Shown here one piece after another: positions 2,915 to 46,113 of a stretch of 46,113 nt of DNA. Both the position numbers and the translations under genes were made by a program. This DNA is from Chrysochromulina tobinii (lineage: Eukaryota). The notes under the pieces are model-generated. The model searched no databases, had not been told where the DNA came from, and saw nothing but the letters and a program-made list of their open reading frames with translations. Numbering within the stretch: position 1 is the first letter of the stretch; every line of letters begins with the position of its first letter. The stretch lies in assembly GCA_001275005.1 (NCBI GenBank), contig JWZX01003247.1, positions 1 to 46,113 of the forward strand, read 5' to 3'.

Positions 2915-3004
2915 CGCTGCACCTCGACGGGCATCATCCTGCGACGCTGCACCTCGACGGGCATCATCCTGCGACGCTGCACCTCGACGGGCATCATCCT
3001 GCGA
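2915..3004. repeat. Perfect 30-bp tandem repeat, 3 copies
   Basis: cgctgcacctcgacgggcatcatcctgcga x3, no spacers. Confidence 0.95.
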
Positions 3005-3531
3005 CCAAGCCGCACGCCATTGCGCTACGGGCTCGACGGCGGGGTCGCGCTCGGCTTAGCCGGCTTTAAGCGCTTTACGTTAAGGCTTAAGCGAAACGGG
3101 CTTGCAGCTAAGCGCGCGCATGATTAAACAAAACTTCAGCAGCGGGTCGAGGGTAAAGAAGCGTAAAGAAGCACAAGTTTGTCACAAAGGAATAGTTGAG
3201 CGGGGTCCGTGCCACCCCTCGCCGATATAGCCTGATAATGCCTGATTCTCCCCACGCGGGGAACGATCTGCACGATCTCCCGTCGATTTCATGTGCCAGT
3301 ACACTAGCCGAACACCGCCCCCGGGGGAGCGGTTGGGGAGCGGCTTCGCTTTGGGACGTCTGCGTTTCCATGTGTACTACTATGATTCTCTGGCTGCCGA
3401 TTGCTACGCGTCCTCGACGATTGCTCCACCTCGACCTGAACCGAACAAGACCCCTGGTGGTCCCTGTCTCCAACACATCTGTGGGTCGACTGCAAGGTCT
3501 GCTGCCGGTGCGGCGGACACTCACTCGGCTC

Positions 3532-9198: not shown

Positions 9199-12100
9199 TC
9201 AGGACGCCGGCAGCGCAGCGGGCACGCGCACGAGCTCCCGCACGAGCTCGACGAGCTCGCGCTTGAGAAGCGGCACGAGTAGGCCCTCTCGCTCGAGGTG
9301 CATGGGCACGTTGTGATGGAACGTGTCATGCTCAACGACGACGACGGCGCGCCGCCCGCGCACACGCGCCGCCTGGGTCATGTCCTCGAGGTTGCCGCTC
9401 CCAACGTGCACTGCGACGCGGCCGACGCCGGTGCCGTCATTGCCGCTTGTGCCGGTACCGCCATTAGCGGTGCCGCCGCCGCTGGCGTGCTCTCTCGCGT
9501 GCTGCTCGAGCGCGCGGTCGATCGCCTGCGCACACGCATTCTTGGCCGCGTCCGGTACGAAAGAGCCATGCGAACGGCGGAGGTCGACGCGTGGGCCAAA
9601 AGCGAGCACACGCGCCGCCCGGTGCGCGTGCTGCAGCGCAGCGGTGGCGCCCATGGAGGAGCCGAGCATGAGCACACTCTCATACGGCGCTGCGTGCGCG
9701 TCGATGAGGGCGCCGTAGTGGGCGAGGCCCTCCCAGCCGCCGCGCGGGTCCTGCAGGTAGTACGAGTTGGACGGATCCGCCAGATAGAGCACATCGAGCG
9801 GCCCGCCCGCGGCGCGTGCAGCTGCGCACGGAACCTGCCACTGTTGCATGCCCGGCCCCTGCGCCGCGAAGGCGACGAGCAGCACGGGGGCACGATGGCC
9901 GACACACGCGGGCTCAAAGTGGTGGTCGACGAGGGCGAGGCGATCGTTCAACGTGCCTGCAAGCTGTGAAGGGGGCGTGCCGCGATTCCAGCCGAGCCCC
10001 ACGCGCGTGCCAGGCCATTCGAACGCCTCCTTCAAATCGAATTGGTTCGCACCGAGACCGAGGTTGAGAAGGGGCAGGTGGCGCAGCACACGCTCGCGGA
10101 GCTCGGCGAGGTTCGTCAACTCGTTCGCCTGCACGTAGAGGCTCTTGAGCTTCGTCAATTTGCGCAGCGACGTCGGCAGGTCGAGGAGCCGATTGTGGTG
10201 CGCCTCGAGCTTCGTCAATTGCGCGCACTCGCCCAACTCCTCCGGCAATTGACGAAGCTGGTTGCCAAACAGCCAGAGCTCGCGCAATTGACGAAGCTGG
10301 CCGATGGAGCGCGGCAGCTCCGTCAATCGATTGGCCTCAAGGCAGAGCGTCGAGACGTTGGGTAGCGCGGGCAGCAGCTCGGCGACCGACACGATACCGT
10401 TCGAGCCGAGCTGCAGCCGCTTGAGATGGCGCCCCAGGTGCGTCGTCGTGAGCTGCTCGAGCAGTTGCGTCGGCGGCCGCGTCAAAGGCGGCGTCGGCGT
10501 CAGTGTCGGCGCCTGTGGCGGCGTCTGCGTGAGCGGCGATGGCGGATCGTGCAGACGATTGAAGGAGGCCAGCAGGGCGGTCAGCGCACTAGCATGCATC
10601 GGGAGCAGCGGTAGGGAGGTTTGGTCGTTGCCTTCGAGCTCGAGCACAGCGAGATGCGGGGAGGCGAACGCGCCCGTCGTGTCGAGCTCGACACGGCGCG
10701 TTGAGCTCGACACGGCGCCATCGGATGGGAGCTCTCCTTCGTCGCCTCCCTCAGCCGCCCTCGTTCGGCGCTGCTCGTCAGTCTCGTCAGTCTCGTCAAT
10801 CTCGTCAGTCTCGTCAGTCTCGTCAGCCGCCCTCGTTCGGCGCTGTAGGCCCCAGCGCAGGTGCTTGAGCTTCGCGCAGCGCAGGACCACAGGAGGTAGG
10901 GAGGCGAAGGCGTTGTCCTGCAGGCTGAGCACGTGGAGCTGCGGAAGGTCGGCGAGCCAGCACGGGAGCTGTGAAAAGTCATTCGAGCTGAGTAGAAGCT
11001 CGCCCAGCTCGATCAAGTGGCTCAGGTCGTCGGGGAGGGCGCGTAATTGATTCTCGGACGCGTCGAGGACTCGCAGCGCACGCAATCCGCCCAGCGCCTC
11101 GGGGAGCTCGACGAGTGCACGCCGACGCACGGAGAGCGTCGTGAGGGTCGCACTATGCATGCTCCACCAGCCGCGCTCTGTGGGGAGAGGCGAGGGGAGC
11201 GCCGTAGTGGGCAGCTGGGCGCGCGCGAGGGGCTCAACGCCGGTGTGAGGCGTCCCCGCCGTCGTGGGCGCCTCGGGCACATGCCCATCCGCATCTTCGA
11301 ATGCAGTCTCGTCAATCTCGTCAGTCTCGGCCGCCCGCTGCGTCGCGCTCGACACGGCGCTCTCGGTCAGCCCATGAGGCGACCTGAGCGCCGTACCGAG
11401 CGCCGCCTGGTAGCCCGTCAGCGCCGCATCGGCACACGCGAGCGCCGTGGTGGCAGCAGACGCGTCCCCAGCCGCGGCGGCAAAGCGCGCCATCTGCATC
11501 GTCACCAGCGCCGTGTCGAGCAGCTCGCGTGTGGACATCGTACTGAGCGCCGCTTCGCGCAGTGCGTGTCTGTTTGGAAGGCCTTGCGGCACCGCCCCAC
11601 TGCTCCTAATGAGGCAGTCGACCGCTCGGAGAGTGAGAAGCCAATCGCATGCCTCCGCAGCCTCGGCCCACCGCTCCTGCAGACTCCAGACGCCGATCAA
11701 GAGCACGAGCACAGGCGCCGTGGCGGCAGCGGTGGGCAGCTGGGTAAAGGACGCGCCCGGCACAGCGCCCAAGGACGCGCCCGGTACAGCGCCCATGGCA
11801 GAGGAGGCGGGCGGCGGCGGCGCGCCTGGGGTCATGGCGAAGCATGCCGACTGCCTAATTAGGAGTGGCGTGATGCCCAAACGTGCCGCCGCCCGAAGGC
11901 ACAACGCCTCCGCTCGGGACAGCGCGCCCTGACGAAACGCTTCGGTCGCTCTGGGTAGAAGCAACGAAGGCTCCTCCTCTTCCACAGCGCCGTCGCAAGC
12001 GCCCGCATTCACAGCGCCAGCGCCGCCGCTCGTGACGTGGCCCGCATCGTCGTCGGTCCTCGGTGGTTCGTCATCTGCTCGGGACGGCGCGCGTGCCTCG

Positions 12101-15100
12101 GCTCCCGCGCCCGCGGCAGCTCCCGCGCCCGAAGCGGCGCGCTTGAGCAGCAGCAAGAGCGCCGCCGCGAGCGCCGGGACGGTCGTGTGTTCATAGATCA
12201 GGTTGAGAGGGAGTGTGAGGGATGTGCATGCATCGAGCGCCTCGCGCAATCTGGCGGCCGAGATCGACGAGAGGCCCGCGTCGAAGAGGTCGTCCTCCTC
12301 GCTCACCTGATGAGGGACGCAATCAGCATGCACTCAGAGATGCACTCAGAGATGCACTCAGAGGTCGTCCTCCTCGCTCACCTGATGGAGGACGCAATCG
12401 GCATGCACTCAGGAGTCCTCTCACCGCCTCGCCGCTCGCCTCGAGCATGGCGCCGATCACCAACTGTTGACATTCAGCGAAGCTCCAGCCCGGGGAGCGA
12501 GCGCCCACGACGGCGCCACGTCCAGATCTACCCGAGATCGGCGCGCCCGCAGAGGGGAAGGACGGCGTCGCCGCCGCCGCCGTCGACGCCGCCGTCGCCG
12601 CCGCTGCCGCCGCCGCCACTGCTGCCTTCCCCTCCGTCGCCTCCGCCTCCGCCTCCGCCTCCGCCTCCTCTCCCTCCTCTCCCACCTCCGCAGCTGCTGA
12701 GCGCTGTCGTGGGCGTCTCACAGCCGCCTTCCGAGCCTCCGCGCGCCTCGCCGCATCGAATGCATGCGCCTTCCGAGCCTCCGCGCGCCTCGCCGCCTCA
12801 TGCTCCAACGGCTGCTTCACACGCAAGTCCAGTGTGAGCATGGGCGTCCCAGTGCGCAGGCTTGGCAGTTGGAACGCTTCGGCCAGCCCGATCCGTAGCG
12901 GTTTACCGGTCGGTCCACGTGGCAGCGAGGGGAGCATCAGGAGCATCTCGGGCAGCCACCGACGCGAGAGCAGGCCGTTCGAGCCCGCGGCGCGCCGGAT
13001 CCGATGAGAGGGGTCATCAGAGCGGTCATCAGAGAGGTCATCAGAGGTATCATCAGACGTATCATCAGATCCGGGACCATTAGAGATGGAGCGTACCTGG
13101 GCGAGCGTCACCGTCCGCCCCGACTCGCATACGACCGCCACGCCCACCGCCTCGCCCAGCTCCTCGTGCGGCGCGGCGAAGGCGAGCACCTCGCGCACCC
13201 AACCGTACAGCTCGCCCGCGGGCCGTCGCGCCGTGCCGGGCGCCGTGCCGGGCGCCGTGCCGGGCGCCGTGTCGGGCGCCGTGGTGGGCGCCGTACCGAG
13301 CGGCGCGGTGGGCGGCTCGTCGGGCGCCTCGGGCCCGATGCATGCGGCGAGCAGCGCGTGCTCGACCGCGAGCGGCGAGATCTTCTCGCCCGCGCGGTTG
13401 ATGACCTGATGACGGGGGCAATCCGCAATCAGATGACCTGAGTACGTAATCAGCAATCCGCAATCATACGCAATCAGATGAGTGGGGGGGGGGGCACTCA
13501 GAGTGGCTCAGCGACCAGAGCAGCAGCAGCAGCGAGGCACTCAGAGGCAATCCGCTGATGACCTCCTTGAAGCGGCCGGTGAGATGCAGGTGGCCTTCCG
13601 AGTCGAGCCACCCCTTATCTCCTGTCCGGAGCCAGCCGCCCGGATAGAATGCTTCCAAATTTGGGTCGTATCCGAGATGAGCCCGAGGCTCGTAACCACC
13701 AAAGACGCACGCGCCGCGCACGAGGACCTCACCTTCCACTCCCGGAGCGCCTTCCAAATTAAGGAGGCCGGGGCTCCCATCGGAGCTGTACGAGCTCACG
13801 CCCACCTCGGGCCCGGCCGCGGGGCCGACGGAGGCGAGCTTGCGTCGGGTGCGCTCGCGCGGGTTGGCACAGATGGGCAGGGCTTCGGTCATCGCGTAGG
13901 TCGGGAGCACGAGCGCACCTGATGAGGCAGGCAATCAGAGGGACTCAGCGGCCATCCGACGCCATCCGACGCGAAATCCGACGCAATCAGGGGCGCACCG
14001 GGCAGCGCTTCCTCGAGCTGCTCCCCAATGGATGGAGCGAGAGCGGCGGAGCAATTGCGGATAAAGGCGAGTTGGTGAGAGGGAGGCATGCCGGTCGAGG
14101 CACGCACGCTCAGAGCGTAGCGGAGCACCTCCATGTGGATGGTCGGCACGGCGCTGTACCAGGTAGGCGCCGTCGTGGGCGCGCCCAGCAGCGCCTCCGC
14201 CGTGTCCGCTGCCGGCGCTCGGCTCGGCTGTGTCGGCCTTAGGCCAAGGCATGCAAAGAATTGGGCGGCCTCGAATCGGGGCAGGCAGAGCACCGGCGCC
14301 CCGGCCAGCGCCGTGACGAGCACATTGACCATGAGTCCGTGCAGGTGGAAGAGCGGCATCACATTGAGAGCGAGGGTGGTGCGGTCGAGTCGGAGGGTCG
14401 AGCGTACGCAGAGCGCGCCGACCCCCATGGAGGCATGGGTGAGAGGGACCACCTTGGACGGAGGGAGATCGGAGGGAGATCGGAGGACGATGAGGGAGAT
14501 CGGGCGGAGATGAGGGAGATCAGGCGGAGATCGGGCGAAGAGGGAGGTGATCAGAGGGAGATGATCAGAGGGAGGTCAGAGGGAGATTGATCAGATGAGG
14601 GGGGCACCTTTGGACGACGCGTCGTGCCACTCGTGTGCATCACGAGCGCGATCGCCTCACGCCCAGGACGACGCCCCGCAGCCGCAATCGATCCGGAGGC
14701 GGTGCTGGCAGAGGCGCGAACAGCACGCTCGACGGCCGCGGAGGTTGCACACGTCAAGGTGAAGGCTCCGCATAGTCGCAAGTCCGGATGAAGGACCAGT
14801 AACTGCAGCCCCAGCCGCGGCACTGCCACCCTGGCTGCCGCCGAGTGACGGCCCGCTGGCACGATCAGCGCAGCGGCTGGTAGATCCTGAGGGCATCGCG
14901 GAGCGATCAGAAGCGGTCGGAGAGGAGCATCATCAGACGCAATCAGACGCAATCAGAGGGCAGGTGCTGAGGGTGCCGACGTAATCTGAAGCCATCCGAC
15001 GCAATCTGAGTCAATCTCCCACCTCGAGCTCAAAGAGGGTTTCGGCGTCGGAGAGGTCGGGGTTGAGAGGCGCGAGGGGTAGCAGTGAGCTGAGCGCGAG

Positions 15101-23131: not shown

Positions 23132-25444
23132 ATGTCGACGGAGGCGGCCGCGATCGAGAACATCGCCGTGTACGCTCGCATCCGCTCGAGCTCCCAGCCC
23201 GCGGAGGCGAGCAGCGACGTGAGCGTCGTCGACGGCCAGCCGGACAAGGTACGTGCGAAGGACTTGCAATTCAACCTCGATCACGCGTTCGGCAGTGACG
23301 CCAAGCAGGCGGAAGTGTTCAACGTGATTGGCGCGCCGCTCGTGCAGCGCATCACCGACGGATATAATGCGTGCATTATTGCCTATGGCCAGACTGGCAG
23401 CGGCAAGACGTACACGATGCTTGGTCCTGAGAACGCGAAGCTCGACGGCTCGGGTGGCGAGACGGCCGACCTGGGCATCGTCCCACGCGCATGCCTGCAG
23501 CTCTTCAAGATGCTGCCCGCGGGCTACACGGTGACGACAAGCTACATGGAGGTCTACAATGACAACGTCAACGACCTCCTCACGGCCGACTACACGAACA
23601 AGGAATACCTGCCGCTGCGCGAGACGGTGACGGGCCACGTCGAGCCTGACGGCATCACGCGGCGGCAGGTCAAGAGCGCCTCGGACGTGATGAAGGCGAT
23701 CGCGCTCGGCGATAGCCGGCGCGTCGTCGCCGCCATGGCCATGAATCCTCGCTCGTCGCGCGGCCATGGCCTGATCGCCATCGAGACGTACACCGACAAG
23801 GGCATGTCGCACGGCCGGCTCTGCCTCGTCGACCTCGCCGGTGAGATTTTGCCCTGTGATTGCCACATGATGGAGACATGATGGCCAAATGATTGCCATC
23901 TGATCGTCATATGATTTTCATCCGATTGCCAAATGATTGCCAAAATGATTGCGACGTGATTGCGACATGGTTGCCATAGGATTGCGCTATAGGATTGCCC
24001 TCCGATGGACCTCAGGTATGGAGAGCTCCAAAAAGTCCGGCGCGGTCGACGTCTCGGGCCCGTCCGCGGCCAAAGCTCGCCAAGAGGAGGCGAAGCGCAT
24101 CAACATGAGCCTTCTGGCCCTGTCGAATGTCGTCAATGCTCTCGCGTCCAAGGGCGCGATGAAGGTGCCCTTCCGAGACTCGAAGCTCACACGGCTGCTG
24201 CAGAGCTCGCTAGCGGGCAACTGTAAGGCGGCCTTCGTGGTCATGCTGCGCGGCGAGAAGCAGAATGTCGAGGAGGCGACCCTCACCCTCCGCTTTGCTC
24301 AGGCGAGAGTGCCACCCACACTGAGTGCCACACTGAGTGCCACACTGACTACCGCTGGTTGCCAGATTGATTGCCAGATTCGAGTGACATCGATTGCGGA
24401 CCCTCCGTTTGGCGATCTGATGGCGATCTCTCGACCTCCGTGATTGCGGACCCTCCGGATTTCGCAGCGTGCCAAAGCGGTGGCCGCGACCGTGATGAGG
24501 AATGAAGACTCCGTCAAGGCGAGGAGTACAGGGGCGGCCTTCCTCGCCGCCCAGAAGAAGCTCGAGGAAGAGCTGCAGGCGCAGCGCGCCGCGCTGAGCG
24601 CGTACCAGGAGAAGCTCGCCAGCGCTGAAGGCGTGAAGGAGGCTATGAAGGCGAAGGTCGACACGCTGCTCTCGGAGATGCAGTCTCTGCAGCGTGATGC
24701 GGACGACGCGAAGCGGCAGAGGCGTCAAGAGGCGCTACAGGACGAGACGGTGGCTATGTCGCAGGCGGCGCTTGAGAGGCGTGTGAAGGCGCTCGAGCAG
24801 CGCAACCGGTGCGTGGGGGGTGGTCCTTGATTGTGATCTGATCGCGATCTGATTGAGGTCTGATTGAGGCCTGATGGAGCTCTGAGTGCATATGATTATT
24901 GCCTTCATCGGCGCACAGAGAGCTCGAGGAGGAGAATCGTCTGCTTCGTCAACGCGACATCATGCACCGGCTCATCGAGCTTGATCAGCTGGAGGCCGCG
25001 AGCGGCGACGGTGTGAAAGGCGGGCTCGGTGTGAACAAGGAGCAGCTCGCCACCTTCAACACGCCGTCGATGTCCGTGACGGGTGCCTTTGCAGTGCAGC
25101 TTGACCGCCAGATAGAAGAGAGCGAGGTCCGTCGCGAGGTGCGCCGAAAAGCGAGCGCTCAGCGATTGAGCAGTGGGCAAGCAACCGTTCCACAGAGGAG
25201 ATGGTCTCTGCTGCGGATGACCTTTCTATCCAAAAGGGCCAAGGGAAGAAGCGTGGCCCGGGGGAGCGGATTCGCAGCTGCGCGTGGCTCGTTGCGGCGC
25301 GTGAACCCGGCGCCCAAGACGACAAAGAAGGTGCTCTCGCGTGAGGACCAGGCGACCATCAAGATCCAGGCTGTCTGGCGCGGCAAGATGGTGCGCGATG
25401 AGCTCGCGTTCGGGTATGGCGACGAGCACGCGTACGGGTACTGA
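23132..25444 (+). CDS. Divergent N-terminal-motor kinesin with coiled coil and C-terminal IQ motif, about 620 aa; exons 23132-23840, 24016-24302, 24468-24808, 24919-25444
   Basis: IAVYARIR, AYGQTGSGKTYTM, YMEVYND, NPRSSRGH, LVDLAG, VPFRDSKLTRLLQSSLAGN, TLRFAQRAK; tail IQAVWRGKMVR. Three introns join the frames (1863 nt). Confidence 0.92.
23841..24015 (+). other. GT-AG intron (175 bp, phase 1) in the kinesin gene
   Basis: G|GTGAG...CCTCAG|GTATG; many tgattgcc units. Confidence 0.88.
24303..24467 (+). other. GC-AG intron (165 bp, phase 0) in the kinesin gene
   Basis: CAG|GCGAG...TCGCAG|CGT; restores the conserved TLRFAQ|RAK; contains ctgagtgccaca and gattgcggaccctccg repeats. Confidence 0.85.
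24809..24918 (+). other. GT-AG intron (110 bp, phase 2) in the kinesin gene
   Basis: CG|GTGCG...GCACAG|AGAG; ctgatt repeats; restores the coiled coil EQRNR-ELEEEN. Confidence 0.85.
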
Positions 25445-29627: not shown

Positions 29628-30509
29628 TCACACGTTGTATGCGCCGGGCGCTGGCGTATTGCCAAAGCGTGCGGCCAGCTTTTGCGTGTACCAGCGGTCG
29701 CAGCTGCCGAAACCACGAGAAGGTGAACCGGCTTTTGTGCTCAGCCTCTGCGGGCCGATCGAGTCCTGCAGCGTGTAGATGGGCCCTGGCGAGATCTTGC
29801 CGAAACTCTTGGTCCGTTCTTGGGCTGCGGACGTGTACACTTTGTCCATGTTCTCGCGCGTGCTCGTGCCCATTCCGAAGAGGGGCGCGGAGGCGAAGCG
29901 GCCCACCGCCTGTGGGCCGACGCTTGAGGCGATCTCGTACGCTCCCGGCGCCGGCTGCTTCGCGGCGGCCTTGAGGGACGGGTCCTTGAAACGCTCATTC
30001 GTTCCGAAACCCCAGCAAGGCTCCGAGCCTTTGCAGGACGAGTACTGCTTGCCGACCCCGGCGACCCCGCTGTAAGTGGCGGGCCCCGGCGAGCCCACGC
30101 CTGAAAAGGTGGAGATCGAGTGCTCTTCAGACACGTAGACCTTCTCGACGCCCTGGCGTGTGGAGGTGCCCATCGAGAAGCCGCCCGGCCCGCCAATCGT
30201 GTCTTTCATGTCGTAAGCGTTTGGCCGCTGGCTAGCAGGAAGATGGTTGAACCGCTCGGAGGTGCCCATCCCGTACGACGGCTGGGACGTGAGAATGAGC
30301 TGCGGTCCGAGCACACTCTTACTGCCGTACTTGGCTGGGCCGGGCGACAACGGCATGGTCGAGAGCTCTGCGTGCTTCGGCGAGATGAAGACTTTGGCCG
30401 CATGCTCGCGAGTCGAGGTGCCGAAGCCATAAGAGGGCGCCGACTGGCGCGAGGAGACCCACTGGTTGCCAAGCGTACTGGACACAAATGTGGTCAACGC
30501 GTCAGCCAT
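29628..30509 (-). CDS. PGP-repeat (SHIPPO/STPG, ODF3-like) ciliary microtubule-associated protein
   Basis: Repeated SPGPAKY, SPGPATY, PAPGAY, SPGPIY, TPAPGAY alternating with P(S/L)(Y/F)G(F/M)GTSxR. Confidence 0.8.
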   Translation of the reverse strand: MADALTTFVSSTLGNQWVSSRQSAPSYGFGTSTREHAAKVFISPKHAELSTMPLSPGPAKYGSKSVLGPQLILTSQPSYGMGTSERFNHLPASQRPNAYDMKDTIGGPGGFSMGTSTRQGVEKVYVSEEHSISTFSGVGSPGPATYSGVAGVGKQYSSCKGSEPCWGFGTNERFKDPSLKAAAKQPAPGAYEIASSVGPQAVGRFASAPLFGMGTSTRENMDKVYTSAAQERTKSFGKISPGPIYTLQDSIGPQRLSTKAGSPSRGFGSCDRWYTQKLAARFGNTPAPGAYNV

Positions 30510-40771: not shown

Positions 40772-43700
40772 TCACGCATGGTGGACGGCGGCCCCGCCCT
40801 GCTGTATCAGCAGCATGCACCATTCAGTGTGGAATGTGGAGGGAAGGTGCGAGACGAGTTCGGCCGCCATCGGCACGAGCGCCGGCGGCTTGGTGCTCAT
40901 GAAGAGCGTGTGTAGCGCTCGCAAGCCGGACAGCGCCGCAGCGCGCTGCTCGGCCGTCGACGAGCTTCGATGGGCGCCTAGCCGGACGGCGTCGAGATGG
41001 GCGCGTGCCTCGCGCTTGAATTGGGCATACAGCACGTCATCGCCGAGCCGCGCCTTGATTTGCATCATTAAGTGCTTGCCTCGCTCATGCGCGCCGTCGT
41101 GGGCCACACGCTCCCGCGCACCGCTACCAGCACCGCCGCCGCCACCGCCCTCGGGTTTTGGTGCCCTCGCGTCGTCGTCGTCGCCGGCGTCGGCGGTGCC
41201 GCACCTCTCCGCCGTCGCCGTCCTTGGGCGCTTTGACTCCGGGGGATGGGCGGCCGCGGAGGCTGCTGCGGTTGCGGGCCGTTTGGGAGCAACGGCAGAG
41301 GCGGCGGCCGAGGCGGCGGCCGAGGCATGCTCGGCAGGAGCAGAGCGATCGACAGGGCCTGGCTGCTTCGGCGTCGGGTGTGACGAACCTCGGTCTGCTG
41401 TTGACGAACCTCGGTCTGCTGTTGACGAACCTCGGTCTGATGTTGACGAACCTCGGTCTGCTGTTGACGAACCTCGGACGCCGTTCGAAGTTGCCCCTAC
41501 TCGCGCCGCTGATGCCGCTTGCAGCTGCCGAGAGCCACCAGTGAAAGCGGGCGAGGCACCGCTTCCGCTGGTGAGAGCAGCGCCGGCGCCGGCGCCGCTC
41601 GCACCACCGGCGCTCGCCGCCCCACCTGCCGCGGCCCCACCTGCCGCCGCCCCACCTGCCGCCGCCCCACCTGCCGCCGCCCCCGCTCTTGCCGCGCCCG
41701 ATCCCGTCGATGGCAGGGCGCTCAGCGGGGCGCGCGGCACAAAGCGAGCGCCTGGCGTGGTCGTGACTGGCGGCGGCGGCGCCGACGTCGCAGGTCCACC
41801 GCCGGCATGGCCCATCGCGCCGCCGGTGTGCACTCGCGAGGCGGCGGCGGCGGCGACAATTGCGGGCATAGACGCGGCCGCGGGGCGAACTTGAGGCACC
41901 GTGGGGTGAGGCGCGGAGCCGTACTGAGCACTTGCATGCAGGGCCGCGGGGCGAACTTGAGGCACCGTGGGCGGAGGTGCGGGCGGATAGCCAGGGCCAG
42001 ACCCGGGCCGGACAGATCTGGCCGGACCTGCCGCTAGACCCGTCGGCAGTCCTTGGCTGTGCGCCGCCGCCGCCGACGACGACGACTGCGTAGGTGCACC
42101 GTTGACGAACCCCTTCGTGCCTCCCGGCGCCAGCGCTGGTGGACCGGTAGGCCCTAAGAGTGCAGATGAGCCCCCTCTCGCCGCCGCCGCCGCCACCGCC
42201 GCTGCTGCTGCGTGCGACCCGGGGGCGGCTCGCTTGGTGGGCAGCGGCGCCGTAGCGGAGGCTGCCACCTGCAGCGCCATTAGCACCTGGCGCACGTGCG
42301 GCAGGTGCTTTGGGACGAAGCGCACGAATCTCGCGCGGAGCTCCTCTCGCCCCGGCATGCCGAAGAGAGATCGCATCTGGTGCTGCATCTCGTGGGGCAC
42401 CACCTCCATCGGAAGGCTGGCGCTGCCGTGAGCACCATGGTTGGCGCTGCCGTGGGCGCCATCGGACGGTTTCGGGAGCGCGAGAAGGGCACGTACGAGA
42501 GCCATGAAGCGAGCATACTCCTCGGCCGTGAGCAGGGTGCGCGCGAGGTTGAGCAGGTCTACAGCCGTCACTGGCGCAGCCGAGGAGCCAGCCGAAGTGC
42601 TCGCAGCTGCCGCCGCCGCTGCCTCCGCCGGCCTCGCAAGAAGCTGATGGCCACCACCGCCCCCCCCCGCCCCGCCGCCCACACGAATGCCACCACGTAC
42701 CGAGGTTTCCCCGGGGTGTAGGCGCCAGTCCTCACGTGGCGGTGCCCACGCCGCCCTTCGCTGCGCTGTCGTGGAGGCGGCAGCGGCGGCACTGCCGGCA
42801 GCGCCGGCGGCGGCGGCGGCGGCGAAGGAAGGGTCGGGTTCTTTCGTGTCACCGCCAGCCACGTCATCGATCATCGCTTGAGCGCCGCTGGGCTCGTCGG
42901 TGTAACGACCCTCGCCGCCACTGCTGACCGCAGCTGCCCAGGCTGCCTCGACGACAGCACCGCTCCTGCCAAGGCCGCCTCCGCCGAGCCCGACACGACC
43001 GGCGCCGCCACCCTCCTCCGCGTCCGCAGCCGCAGCGGCAGCAGCGGCGGCGGCTGAGGTGTACCGAGCACCCTTGCTACTACTACTGGCGAGTGCAGCG
43101 TGCAGCGAGGGCGTCGGTGCGGGTGGCGGCAAAGCGGGCAACGGCCGAGGTCCGAGCGGAGCGCATGGGGTGGCCGCATGGACGCTCTCGCCTTCTTCGA
43201 GCTCCACCGTCCCAACGTCCCCAGACGCGGTGGAGGCGAGCTCCGAGCGTAACTTGAAGAAGCGCTGCAAGGCAGGGTAGCCCTGCCCGAACGAGCTGAA
43301 CTGCTTCACGTGCGGACGCAGCCACAACGAGAGGCCGTCGACCCATGCGCTCTTTGCAAAACGAGACTCGCAAAGCATCACCGCGCCAAAGTCGTTGCGG
43401 TGTCGAATGACACGGCCGACCGCCTGGTTGACCGCACGCATCGCCTGTTGATGATACCATGCTTCCCCGGACAGCATGCCAGAGGCGCCCGAGCCGCCCA
43501 GCCCCGAGCTGCGTGCCGCGCCCGCGCGCCGCTGGTCGAGATACTGCCGCTTGAGCTCGACCTTGGCATCGAACGCAGGCGGAAGCGGCAGACCAGTGAT
43601 CACGACGCCACGGCACGCGCTGTCGGCAAAGTCGACGCCTTCGGACAGCTTGCCGCGGCACACAGCGAGCAGCATCGCGCCGCCCGTGCCACGGAAGAGC

Positions 43701-45843
43701 GAGGATTGGACGGCATCCTGGAAGGTCTGAACGGCCGCCGCGCATTCGGACGCGTCTCGCGGCTCGACGACGAGCGTCTTGAGCTTACGCAATCGCTCGA
43801 GCACCGAAGGGCCGCCGTCGGGTGATGCCAACGCCCACGCGGCGTGCGCTGACTGCATGGCCGAGTAGGAGGGGAAGAAGACGAGGACGCCCTGCGGCAC
43901 GAGGCGCGCGAAGTTGATGATCGCATTGCCCAGGTCGCGCTTCGCATCCTCGCTCTCGCGCTGAGCGTACGACGAGGTGAGCTCATGCCCCGAGGGCCCC
44001 TTGGTGAAGGTGCCGATGAGCAACTGCGCCTGCGGATCGATGACGTGCGGGTTCTCGAGCTTGTACTCAAAGGGCAAGCCCAGCTCATCAGCGAATGAAC
44101 CCAGGGGAGAGAGCGTACCCGAGGTAAGCAGCACGGAGCGCACGCCCGCCGCCTTGAGCGCGCGCATCGCCGCACCCGAATGGAAGCACCAGTAGCCGAG
44201 CACACGTGGCTTGGCGTCGAGCGTGCCCGCGGCCCGTGCCTTGCCCCCGGCGCCGCCCCCCTTGCCGCCCTCGCGCTCTTTCAACTCGTGGATGCAAAGC
44301 CGGTACTCTGCGGGCGAGCGCTCGGGGTCGAACGCAATCTTGAATGCGTCCGCGAGCTTCTGCAGATTGAAGGAGCTCCCCGCGGTCACGCCGAAGCGTG
44401 CTGCCTCACCCAGTGTGGTGACGCACCTGCATCCAAGGCGCGATCCGCAGCGAATCAGTGGTCAGCAAAGCCCGTCAGACGCGCTGGGCGAGCAGAGTGT
44501 CTCCACAGCCATCCACGCACCTCTCACAAAGTTCGACCAGAGGCGTGACCGTGACACCGTCGATGCCTGCCGCGCCGAGCATTCGACCGAGCTCCTCACC
44601 GGCCGCCACGTACCGAGCCTCCGCGCGCGTCTGCTGCAGCGGCACCTTGGCGACGCTCTCGTCCACCGCCAGCAGCAGCTGACGCAGCCGGACGAGCTCA
44701 TCAGGGCTCACGCCGCGCACGCCGCCGTTGGCATTCTCGAGACCGTCCACCTCCGGGTCGACCGCCTCGGAGTCATCGGCGCCGCGGTTCCGTGCGCCCG
44801 CGAGGAGCCGGTCGACCTCGCGCACCGCTCCCGCGAGCTCAAGCGAGCTCAGGTCGAACGAGGCGGCGTCGGCGCACACGCGCTCGATGTTATGCGCTTC
44901 GTCAAAGATGAGCACGTCGCTCGCCAGGTTGATGTTGAGCGCGCGCCGCACCTTCGAATCCAGCAGCAGGAAGGTGGCAATCAAAGGGACTCAGTGGCAG
45001 TCCACCAGGGCACTCAACGGAATTCAACGGCACTCAGCTGGAGCGCGCTGCACCTTCGGATCCAGCAGGTAGTTGTATGGGAGGAAGAGCACGTCCGAGC
45101 ACACCTGTGGGGAGTGTGGGGCGTCGTGATGAGCACTTGCATGCAGGGAAGAGGATGAGGAAGAGCACTTCCGAGCACACCTGCAGCTCCCGCGCGAGGT
45201 AAAATGGGCAGAGCTCGTCGCGCTTGGAGGAGCTCACGAAGTCCTCGATGTCGGGCACGGCGCGCACGCTCTCGTCGGCCGCCGCCTGCGGGTGCGCCAG
45301 CGAGCCGTGCTTGCGCTTCGCCTCCTGCAGCTTGCGATAGTAGACGCAAGACTGGGCTGCTGTCAGTGCCTGGCACGCGGCAGACTGCGACGGGCCAGTG
45401 AGCTTTGATACGTCCTGGTGGCAGCAGAGCTGCTCGCGTGAGCCGAGCATGCAGACGAGCGGCCGGTGCACCGTGCGACGCAGCTCGCGCACCACCTGCT
45501 GCAGCTGCGAGTGTGTGCGCGAAGCGTAGATGATCCTCGGCACGCGCCCGTCGCCGCCGCCGCCACCGCCGCCCGTCCCGAGGGTGGCCGACAAACCCGC
45601 GGCCCACGCTGCGCCTGCCGCGACGTTCGCCGACGCCGCACGCTGCCGCTGGATCTGCGCGCGCCGCCACCCAAGGGCCGCGCACAGCAAGCAGAGCGTC
45701 TTGCCAGTGCCAGTTGGGCTCTCAAGCAGTGCGTTGGAGCCGTGCTCGAGCGCGAGCACGACCTTTTCCATGTACACGAGCTGGACCGGGTAGGCCTCGA
45801 AGGGGAAGTCGACCGCGCATCCCGCGATGTCATACAATGGCAT
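40772..45843 (-). CDS. RTEL1: Regulator of telomere elongation helicase 1 (Fe-S DEAH helicase), about 1599 aa; exons 45843-45181, 45104-45054, 44951-44521, 44426-40772
   Basis: ESPTGTGKT, IIYASRTHSQL, Fe-S cysteines (LCC, AC, SC, LCPFY), PYNYLLD, DEAHN, LTSGTLSP, RGKLSEGVDF, QAVGRVIRHRNDFG, LSLWLRP; harmonin-homology-like helical segments in the tail favour RTEL1 over FANCJ. Spliced length 4800 nt. Confidence 0.9.
41381..41477. repeat. Coding 21-bp tandem repeat, about 4.6 copies (GSSTADR) in the RTEL1 tail
   Basis: tgacgaacctcggtctgctgt repeated, one variant unit. Confidence 0.95.
44427..44520 (-). other. GT-AG intron (94 bp, phase 2) in RTEL1
   Basis: AG|GTGCGTGG...ATGCAG|GTGCGTCA; restores LCER-CVTTL. 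Confidence 0.85.
44952..45053 (-). other. GT-AG intron (102 bp, phase 0) in RTEL1
   Basis: CCGAAG|GTGCAG...TTCGAAG|GTGCGG; contains an in-frame stop; restores LLDPK|VRRAL. Confidence 0.9.
45105..45180 (-). other. GT-AG intron (76 bp, phase 0) in RTEL1
   Basis: CAG|GTGTGCTCGGAAG...CCCCACAG|GTGTGCTCGGACG; restores RELQ|VCSDVLFLPYNY. Confidence 0.92.
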
Positions 45844-45919: not shown

Positions 45920-46100
45920 TAAAGTTAACTGTTAACGTTAAAGTTACCTAACACACGACAAAGTTACCTAACATTAACAAAAGCTGATCTTGCTTCCCGC
46001 TGGATGGCGTGTTCATAGTTAATGTTAATGTTCATGGTTAATGTTCCATGTTAATGTACAATTGTTCATGGTTATTTGTTCGTGTTCACGTTCCACGTCC
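45920..46100. promoter_or_regulatory. AT-rich upstream region of RTEL1 with reiterated GTTAA/GTTCA motifs
   Basis: aagttacctaaca twice (45941, 45961); gttaac, gttaat and gttcat reiterated; sharp GC drop directly upstream of the ATG at 45843. Confidence 0.4.
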
Positions 46101-46113
46101 AGCTGTCCACGTC

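Follow-up and report, generated by a model that had tools for sequence, protein, structure and literature searches.

A 26-base duplication centred on AG|GT holds both predicted splice sites of a likely young intron in an RTEL1-like gene of Chrysochromulina tobinii

Introduction

Several routes of intron gain have already been described, and the origin of most recently gained introns cannot be traced (PMC4974935). In tandem-duplication introns, an exon segment containing AGGT is duplicated and both splice sites lie inside the repeat (PMC3443670; PMC2891723; PMC4974935). The staggered-break neointrons of Daphnia pulex carry exon-end repeats of 4-12 bases and are frequently gained in parallel (PMC4202315; reviewed in PMC3443670). 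Among the Introners, classes 13 and 14 of Polarella obtain both splice sites from a 4-base target duplication (bioRxiv 10.1101/2020.10.14.339549), and those of Chrysochromulina sp. make 4-base duplications, carry their own donor and co-opt an acceptor (bioRxiv 10.1101/2022.06.06.494994). Short target duplications have been reviewed (PMC11282704), non-LTR introners are treated in a study whose main text names no haptophyte (PMC12130899), and direct repeats of 4-30 bases at or near intron borders have been reported for a mixed set of 213 introns (PMC11782384). In the literature searched, mostly open papers and their main texts, we found none on long-duplication introns in haptophytes; the supplements of Introner studies, such as Dataset S2 of PMC12130899 and the tables of the 2022 preprint, may list such cases.

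Here we analyze a predicted intron of 102 bases, intron 2 of an RTEL1-like gene of Chrysochromulina tobinii, in a stretch of 46,113 nucleotides (assembly GCA_001275005.1, contig JWZX01003247.1) that is referred to as the window throughout. Measured against the systems as the cited texts describe them, it shares with the Daphnia neointrons an insert of untraced source, a direct repeat of the adjacent exon at the ends of the insert and internal short repeats, but its repeat has 26 bases instead of 4-12 and spans the junction on both sides, and its filler resembles other introns of the same genome. As in the Polarella Introners, a duplicated target (AGGH in that case) would provide donor as well as acceptor and leave the mRNA unchanged; there, however, the duplication has 4 bases (3-8 across classes) and the elements form multi-copy families, whereas the RTEL1 duplication has 26 bases and encloses a single-copy filler. 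The Chrysochromulina sp. Introners have the haptophyte host group and the lack of terminal inverted repeats in common with RTEL1 intron 2, yet differ in their 4-base duplications and in the way they obtain donor and acceptor. The likeness to tandem-duplication introns consists in a duplicated AG|GT-bearing exon segment that gives both splice sites and in the decay of the intronic copies; in those introns the body is the duplicated sequence and intron length equals duplication length, while abutting copies are absent as the body of the RTEL1 intron, three quarters of which are foreign to the exon. A repeat of 26 bases falls within the range given in PMC11782384, the abstract of which makes no statement about register with both splice sites. 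Intron 2 thus differs from the known routes in the length and symmetry of its duplication and in its intron-like filler.

Results

The RTEL1-like gene and its predicted introns

The gene lies on the minus strand, and its original assignment to RTEL1 is borne out by the domains DEAD_2, Helicase_C_2 and ARCH_RTEL1, the last of these at 21 bits and below its cut-off of 27, and by the best named relatives of the product, which are RTEL1 proteins. A model with four exons is free of stops over 1,599 codons. Exon 1 (45181-45843) runs from the start codon through DEAD_2 positions 1-114 and is followed by intron 1 (45105-45180, 76 bases), exon 2 (45054-45104, 51 bases or 17 codons), the predicted phase-0 GT-AG intron 2 (44952-45053, 102 bases) and exon 3 (44521-44951), which encodes DEAD_2 positions 134-171 and the DEAH box. 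The gap between DEAD_2 positions 114 and 134 accommodates the 17 codons of exon 2. Intron 3 (44427-44520, 94 bases) is predicted from the gene model, has no RNA junction in the data examined and begins with six bases identical to the first six of the next exon. Exon 4 (40772-44426, of which 40775-44426 enter the stop-free frame) contains ARCH_RTEL1, Helicase_C_2 and a long low-complexity tail. The first 2,340 coding bases hold nine AGGT sites, with introns at three. For another gene of the window, the best named match is from Prymnesium polylepis (65%). Human RTEL1 may have an exon boundary at the codon of intron 2, a point that carries no weight here.

If the 102 bases were retained, they would introduce two in-frame stops. 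Of the 15 GT/GC-AG pairs around the site that stay in frame and free of stops, 45053/44952 is the only one to yield a protein of homologue length. Six RNA runs (X13-X18) were compared with the window as contigs. Coverage was thin, such that uncovered parts are uninformative, and no contig contained the joint 45054-44951. Intron 1 is spliced in one contig from run X17, seen as a skip of 76 bases, so the gene is transcribed; the same contig covers exon 2 and ends at 45049, where it carries the intronic base and may represent DNA or unspliced RNA. The same two origins are possible for a contig of 151 bases from run X18 that runs across the acceptor of intron 2 unspliced. A skip of 166 bases in an X16 contig was assigned to another locus (its short side has 20 letters, and 20 foreign letters stand between the two sides). 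Protein logic, that is frame, homologue length and exonic conservation, favors the view that 44952-45053 is spliced out.

A near-identical repeat in register with both splice sites

The donor-side copy of the repeat (45043-45068) consists of 15 exonic bases followed by 11 intronic ones, and the acceptor-side copy (44941-44966) of 15 intronic bases ending in AG followed by 11 exonic ones. Both have AG|GT in the same register, with 15 bases before and 11 after the junction on the minus strand; they are spaced 102 bases apart and agree at 24 of 26 positions. From window composition, the chance of at least 20 matches at the 22 positions outside AGGT is 6e-10. When the 304 AGGT sites outside the leucine-rich-repeat gene described below were compared in all 46,056 pairs, the modal match was 10 of 26 and just 12 pairs reached 24, the other 11 being tandem arrays or one other local duplication. 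The repeat that had been proposed is therefore real and far beyond chance, both predicted splice sites indeed fall inside a duplicated exon segment, and the previous repeat-flanked intron is as close as had been stated, exon 2 between them measuring 51 bases. A gapped alignment hints that the two copies may stay alike for some 10 bases more on the upstream side.

The two mismatches are 45059, C in the exon, against 44957, T in the intron, and 45049, A in the intron (donor +5), against 44947, G in the exon. That each mismatch involves one exonic and one intronic copy had been read as a sign of intronic decay. This pattern is automatic and by itself uninformative, because every position of a junction-centred repeat has one copy of each kind. 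The decay itself is upheld by the comparison with homologues, of which 108 out of 120 have the anchoring motif. The upstream mismatch gives Pro in the exon copy (45/108 homologues) and would give Ser in the intron copy (2/108); at the downstream mismatch, the exon copy codes for a near-invariant Arg (107/108) and the intron copy would code for Gln (0/108). As the exonic copies keep conserved residues at both positions, it is the intronic copies (44957 and 45049) that have changed, which is expected under any model with a working exon. The homologues also bear on the GT itself. The codon after intron 2 (44951-44949, minus strand) is Val, found in 1 of the 108 homologues, and relatives have Ala, Thr or Ser; the codon after intron 1 (45104-45102, minus strand) is likewise Val and matched by none. 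After both junctions the closest relatives mostly have Ala. The GT of the intron-2 site was probably created shortly before the duplication by an Ala-to-Val codon change.

A filler that resembles other introns

Between the repeat copies lie 76 bases (44967-45042), referred to here as the filler. They contain five units of about 10 bases of the type YTGAKTGCCN, in agreement with the tgagtgcc/tgattgcc units noted earlier, and, 33 bases upstream of the AG, a branch-like TTGAT. Among 103 tandem offsets against the flanking exon, none matches more than 28 of 76 bases, and local alignment with the reconstructed target stays at background level (p = 0.60). Neither an inverted nor a direct copy of local exon explains the filler, with scores of 17 and 14 against a null mean of 17.8. 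Hence 76 of the 102 intron bases are not derived from the exon, and the proposal that the intron was made wholly by duplicating an exon segment does not hold: these bases match no flanking exon and resemble other introns. At 80% likeness, the filler has a flat read depth of 42.4, as in exons, and is thus single copy in the one DNA run used for this estimate (X9), which possibly stems from the window's own source DNA.

The filler has 18 of 19 bases in common with the putative intron 13998-13919 (E 0.002). In sense alignments it scores above dinucleotide shuffles for nine of the 12 putative introns with which it was compared, no more than 24 of 500 shuffles doing as well; likeness above shuffles is absent for 15022-14887 and for RTEL1 introns 1 and 3. 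The unit YTGAKTGC is found 31 times in the whole window; 28 of these fall, all in sense orientation, within 1,511 intron bases, where the antisense form is lacking. This likeness is partly circular, since these putative introns were picked by the same words as occur in the filler. The catalogue of 12 introns was made by hand (an automatic finder gave four candidates, one with a doubtful donor), and two borders of the catalogued introns agree with homologues. Intron 2 has no terminal inverted repeats beyond its GC-rich duplicated ends, a source copy of the filler did not come to light, and a plasmid search gave no match. A structured RNA was rejected on account of fold (nothing special, z -1.2) and Rfam (no matching family), and four prokaryote matches to the filler pattern were dismissed as chance. 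At the end of the filler (44970-44976), seven bases repeat the splice junction in inverted orientation, which may reflect repair microhomology or chance.

Intron 1 and other duplications in the window

Intron 1 has a donor that stems from a copy of 24-27 bases of the start of the next exon, and its body, a repeat present in very many copies, supplies the acceptor itself. In DNA run X9 the summed contig depth on this body rises to 20,823 compared with 42, most of the 180 X9 contigs aligned to the window fall on 45105-45180, and matches to the repeat frequently stop shortly after the acceptor, at CAG|GT(G). Intron 1 therefore has the many similar copies by which an Introner is recognized, and the filler of intron 2 does not. 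Neither viral contigs nor prokaryote genomes contained a hit when scanned with patterns for the intron-1 repeat and for the common intron end. Exon 4 of the same gene contains a copy of the repeat without the acceptor AG, with a 41-base direct repeat (41876-41982, minus strand); these 66 bases (41896-41961) are in frame and look like an insertion that stayed exonic.

AG|GT-bearing duplications that flank a filler occur in the window at intron 1 (76 bases), at intron 2 and at 12381-12307 (75 bases). The last belongs to a 53-base repeat with a spacing of 75 (12285-12412, minus strand) that duplicates the 3' end of an intron plus 22 bases of the next exon and results in two tandem acceptors, similar to the potato RdRp case or to a second insertion at the same site. 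In the putative introns 5397-5237, 13562-13406 and 13998-13919 (minus strand), 7 of the 10 positions after GT match the start of the next exon, and these are possibly older, decayed duplications. For the 10 putative introns that were not picked by repeats, donor positions +3 to +12 match the next exon 39 times compared with 30.5 in permuted data (p = 0.034); the likeness on the acceptor side of the same introns is not significant (31 vs 27.5, p = 0.21). Intron 2 has 9 of 10 matches on the acceptor side and other introns have at most 6, so a duplication-derived acceptor is peculiar to intron 2.

The window contains at least the following further repeats. A perfect 23-base direct repeat surrounds a 9-base array at 10751-10845 (spacing 72), and a perfect 30-base direct repeat surrounds a 12-base filler at 12725-12796 (spacing 42); both are in frame within an open frame. 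A 30-base tandem triplet has AG|GT in each unit (2915-3005, minus strand). A 13-base exact repeat centred on AG|GT (30166-30261, plus strand, spacing 96) may be due to chance, as a long frame lies there on the other strand. A kinesin gene contains a putative GC-AG intron with array units of 10-12 bases (24303-24467, plus strand). The region around 9199-15100 (minus strand) encodes a fusion protein with an AMP-binding domain, a phosphopantetheine site and leucine-rich repeats, the relatives of which that share its domain order are mostly without names.

Relatives lacking intron 2 and distant loci sharing its position

A quick tree was calculated from 52 rows, namely the window, 34 of 156 proteins and 17 of 79 loci (18 loci had been chosen, and L013 was dropped as too short). 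The window RTEL1 nests in a clade of 12 rows with an SH-aLRT value of 100 and inner supports of 83-99, directly beside P0007, with which it is 78% identical. Of its 11 other rows, eight cover the intron-2 site, and all eight are uninterrupted; the remaining three (P0006, P0008 and P0039) start only after it and may contain the intron, and P0002-P0010 were compared as protein sequences. At least four of the eight are nevertheless probably genomic: L002 and L003 each come from a contig with several genes, P0007 runs out into an intron-like tail away from this site, and the contig of P0002 measures 27,386 bases. The eight uninterrupted relatives favor intron gain, and with at least four of them bearing genomic signs, retention of an older intron would need four to five losses as opposed to one gain. 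We conclude that the 102-base stretch is likely a young intron.

The position itself could be old. Among 79 loci, 63 were scorable including L001, and 7 of the 62 others (L007, L009-L013 and L028), which represent two distant AT-rich eukaryote lineages, are interrupted at the codon boundary of intron 2; in L019, L033 and L049 an intron lies at the boundary of intron 1. Distant loci with introns at these boundaries mean that both positions could be old, and the shared position may reflect parallel gain or an old site. When 21 of 64 parts of a metagenome collection were scanned, one same-species locus was obtained; L001, the sole second locus of this species, is 99.98% identical and not independent. 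An AT-rich repeat at the end of the window (45983-46113) differs from L001 positions 1-219, reflecting an assembly or allele difference.

Discussion

We propose that intron 2 arose when an intron-type insert of about 76 bases entered an RTEL1 exon during repair of a staggered break that left a 26-base target duplication, a reading to which we assign a probability of roughly 55%. Shortly beforehand, AG|GT would have arisen in the exon through the Ala-to-Val codon change. A staggered break would then have left a 26-base overhang, the filling-in of which duplicated the landing site, and the gap would have been closed by copying about 76 bases from another intron. Since the duplicated segment holds AG|GT, the left copy could serve as donor and the right copy as acceptor; splicing would remove the insert together with one repeat copy and restore the protein exactly, and the insertion would have been retained because AG|GT fell inside the duplication. 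The 76 bases that are not derived from the exon argue for an insertion with a long target duplication and against a plain tandem duplication, and it is from the footprint that we infer the order of events and the involvement of break-repair machinery rather than a mobile element. By the same reasoning, such insertions would survive in coding DNA only if they are in frame or if AG|GT lies inside the duplication.

The filler could instead be an aged or truncated non-autonomous mobile element, an Introner, possibly of a retro type with long, variable target duplications, or an element whose own acceptor was later lost, so that splicing fell back on the AG of the duplication. The neighboring intron 1, 51 bases away, contains a repeat present in very many copies and accompanied by a 24-27-base duplication, a copy of that repeat without AG sits in frame in exon 4, the filler end parallels the 3' end of intron 13998-13919 up to about 5 bases before its AG, and the donors of the 10 introns not picked by repeats resemble the start of the next exon. 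Against this, the depth of the filler is flat, 488 of 500 shuffles score as well against the intron-1 repeat as the filler does, and terminal inverted repeats beyond the GC-rich ends, a special fold and an Rfam match were all lacking, which leaves a mobile origin unlikely on balance. Still less probable in our view is an older intron, ancestral or gained earlier in the lineage, both ends of which were replaced by exon sequence, as could happen if repair templated by a spliced RNA or cDNA was aborted, and the old body of which survives as the filler. Such a history would fit the interrupted codon boundary in seven distant loci (and that of intron 1 in three) and a filler resembling an ordinary intron body of this genome minus its usual end, but all eight informative clade members are without the intron, the ancestral version requires four to five losses (a count that does not weigh against an earlier gain within this lineage), and parallel gain is common in some lineages (PMC4202315).

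A classical tandem duplication of an AGGT-bearing exon segment of 26-36 bases, with an array grown or inserted between the copies later, would place both sites inside the repeat, as that model predicts (PMC3443670; PMC2891723), and would agree with the possible extension of the repeat by some 10 bases and with the 30-base tandem triplet at 2915-3005. However, a unit of 26 bases shifts the frame and is far below the shortest putative introns of this window (75-80 bases), so that the short-duplication intermediate would probably have broken the helicase core, and the filler matches no exon offset; we regard this sequence of events as slightly more doubtful even than an overwritten old intron. 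That the stretch is unspliced and the gene copy broken appears very improbable: none of the six RNA runs shows the junction and two RNA-library contigs read unspliced sequence, but the four-exon model is free of stops throughout, only the intronic copies have changed and the gene is transcribed with intron 1 removed.

If insertion during break repair is correct, the duplicated ends of intron 2 record the insertion site, supply both splice signals and act as a clock, which stands at two changes in 22 free positions. As a single case, the intron adds a long-duplication example to the routes of intron gain that have already been described. Should the footprint be genome-wide, as intron 1 and the three possibly decayed cases suggest, one could directly count, in this haptophyte, the insertions that turn into introns and test whether a new exonic GT precedes them. 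A general process in which array-type DNA is copied from introns into exons with target duplications of 11-40 bases and becomes established at new Ala-to-Val GT sites is a tentative idea that we consider more apt to fail than to hold; if true, intron gain in this organism would rescue or exploit new exonic donors and leave a datable repeat pair for each event.
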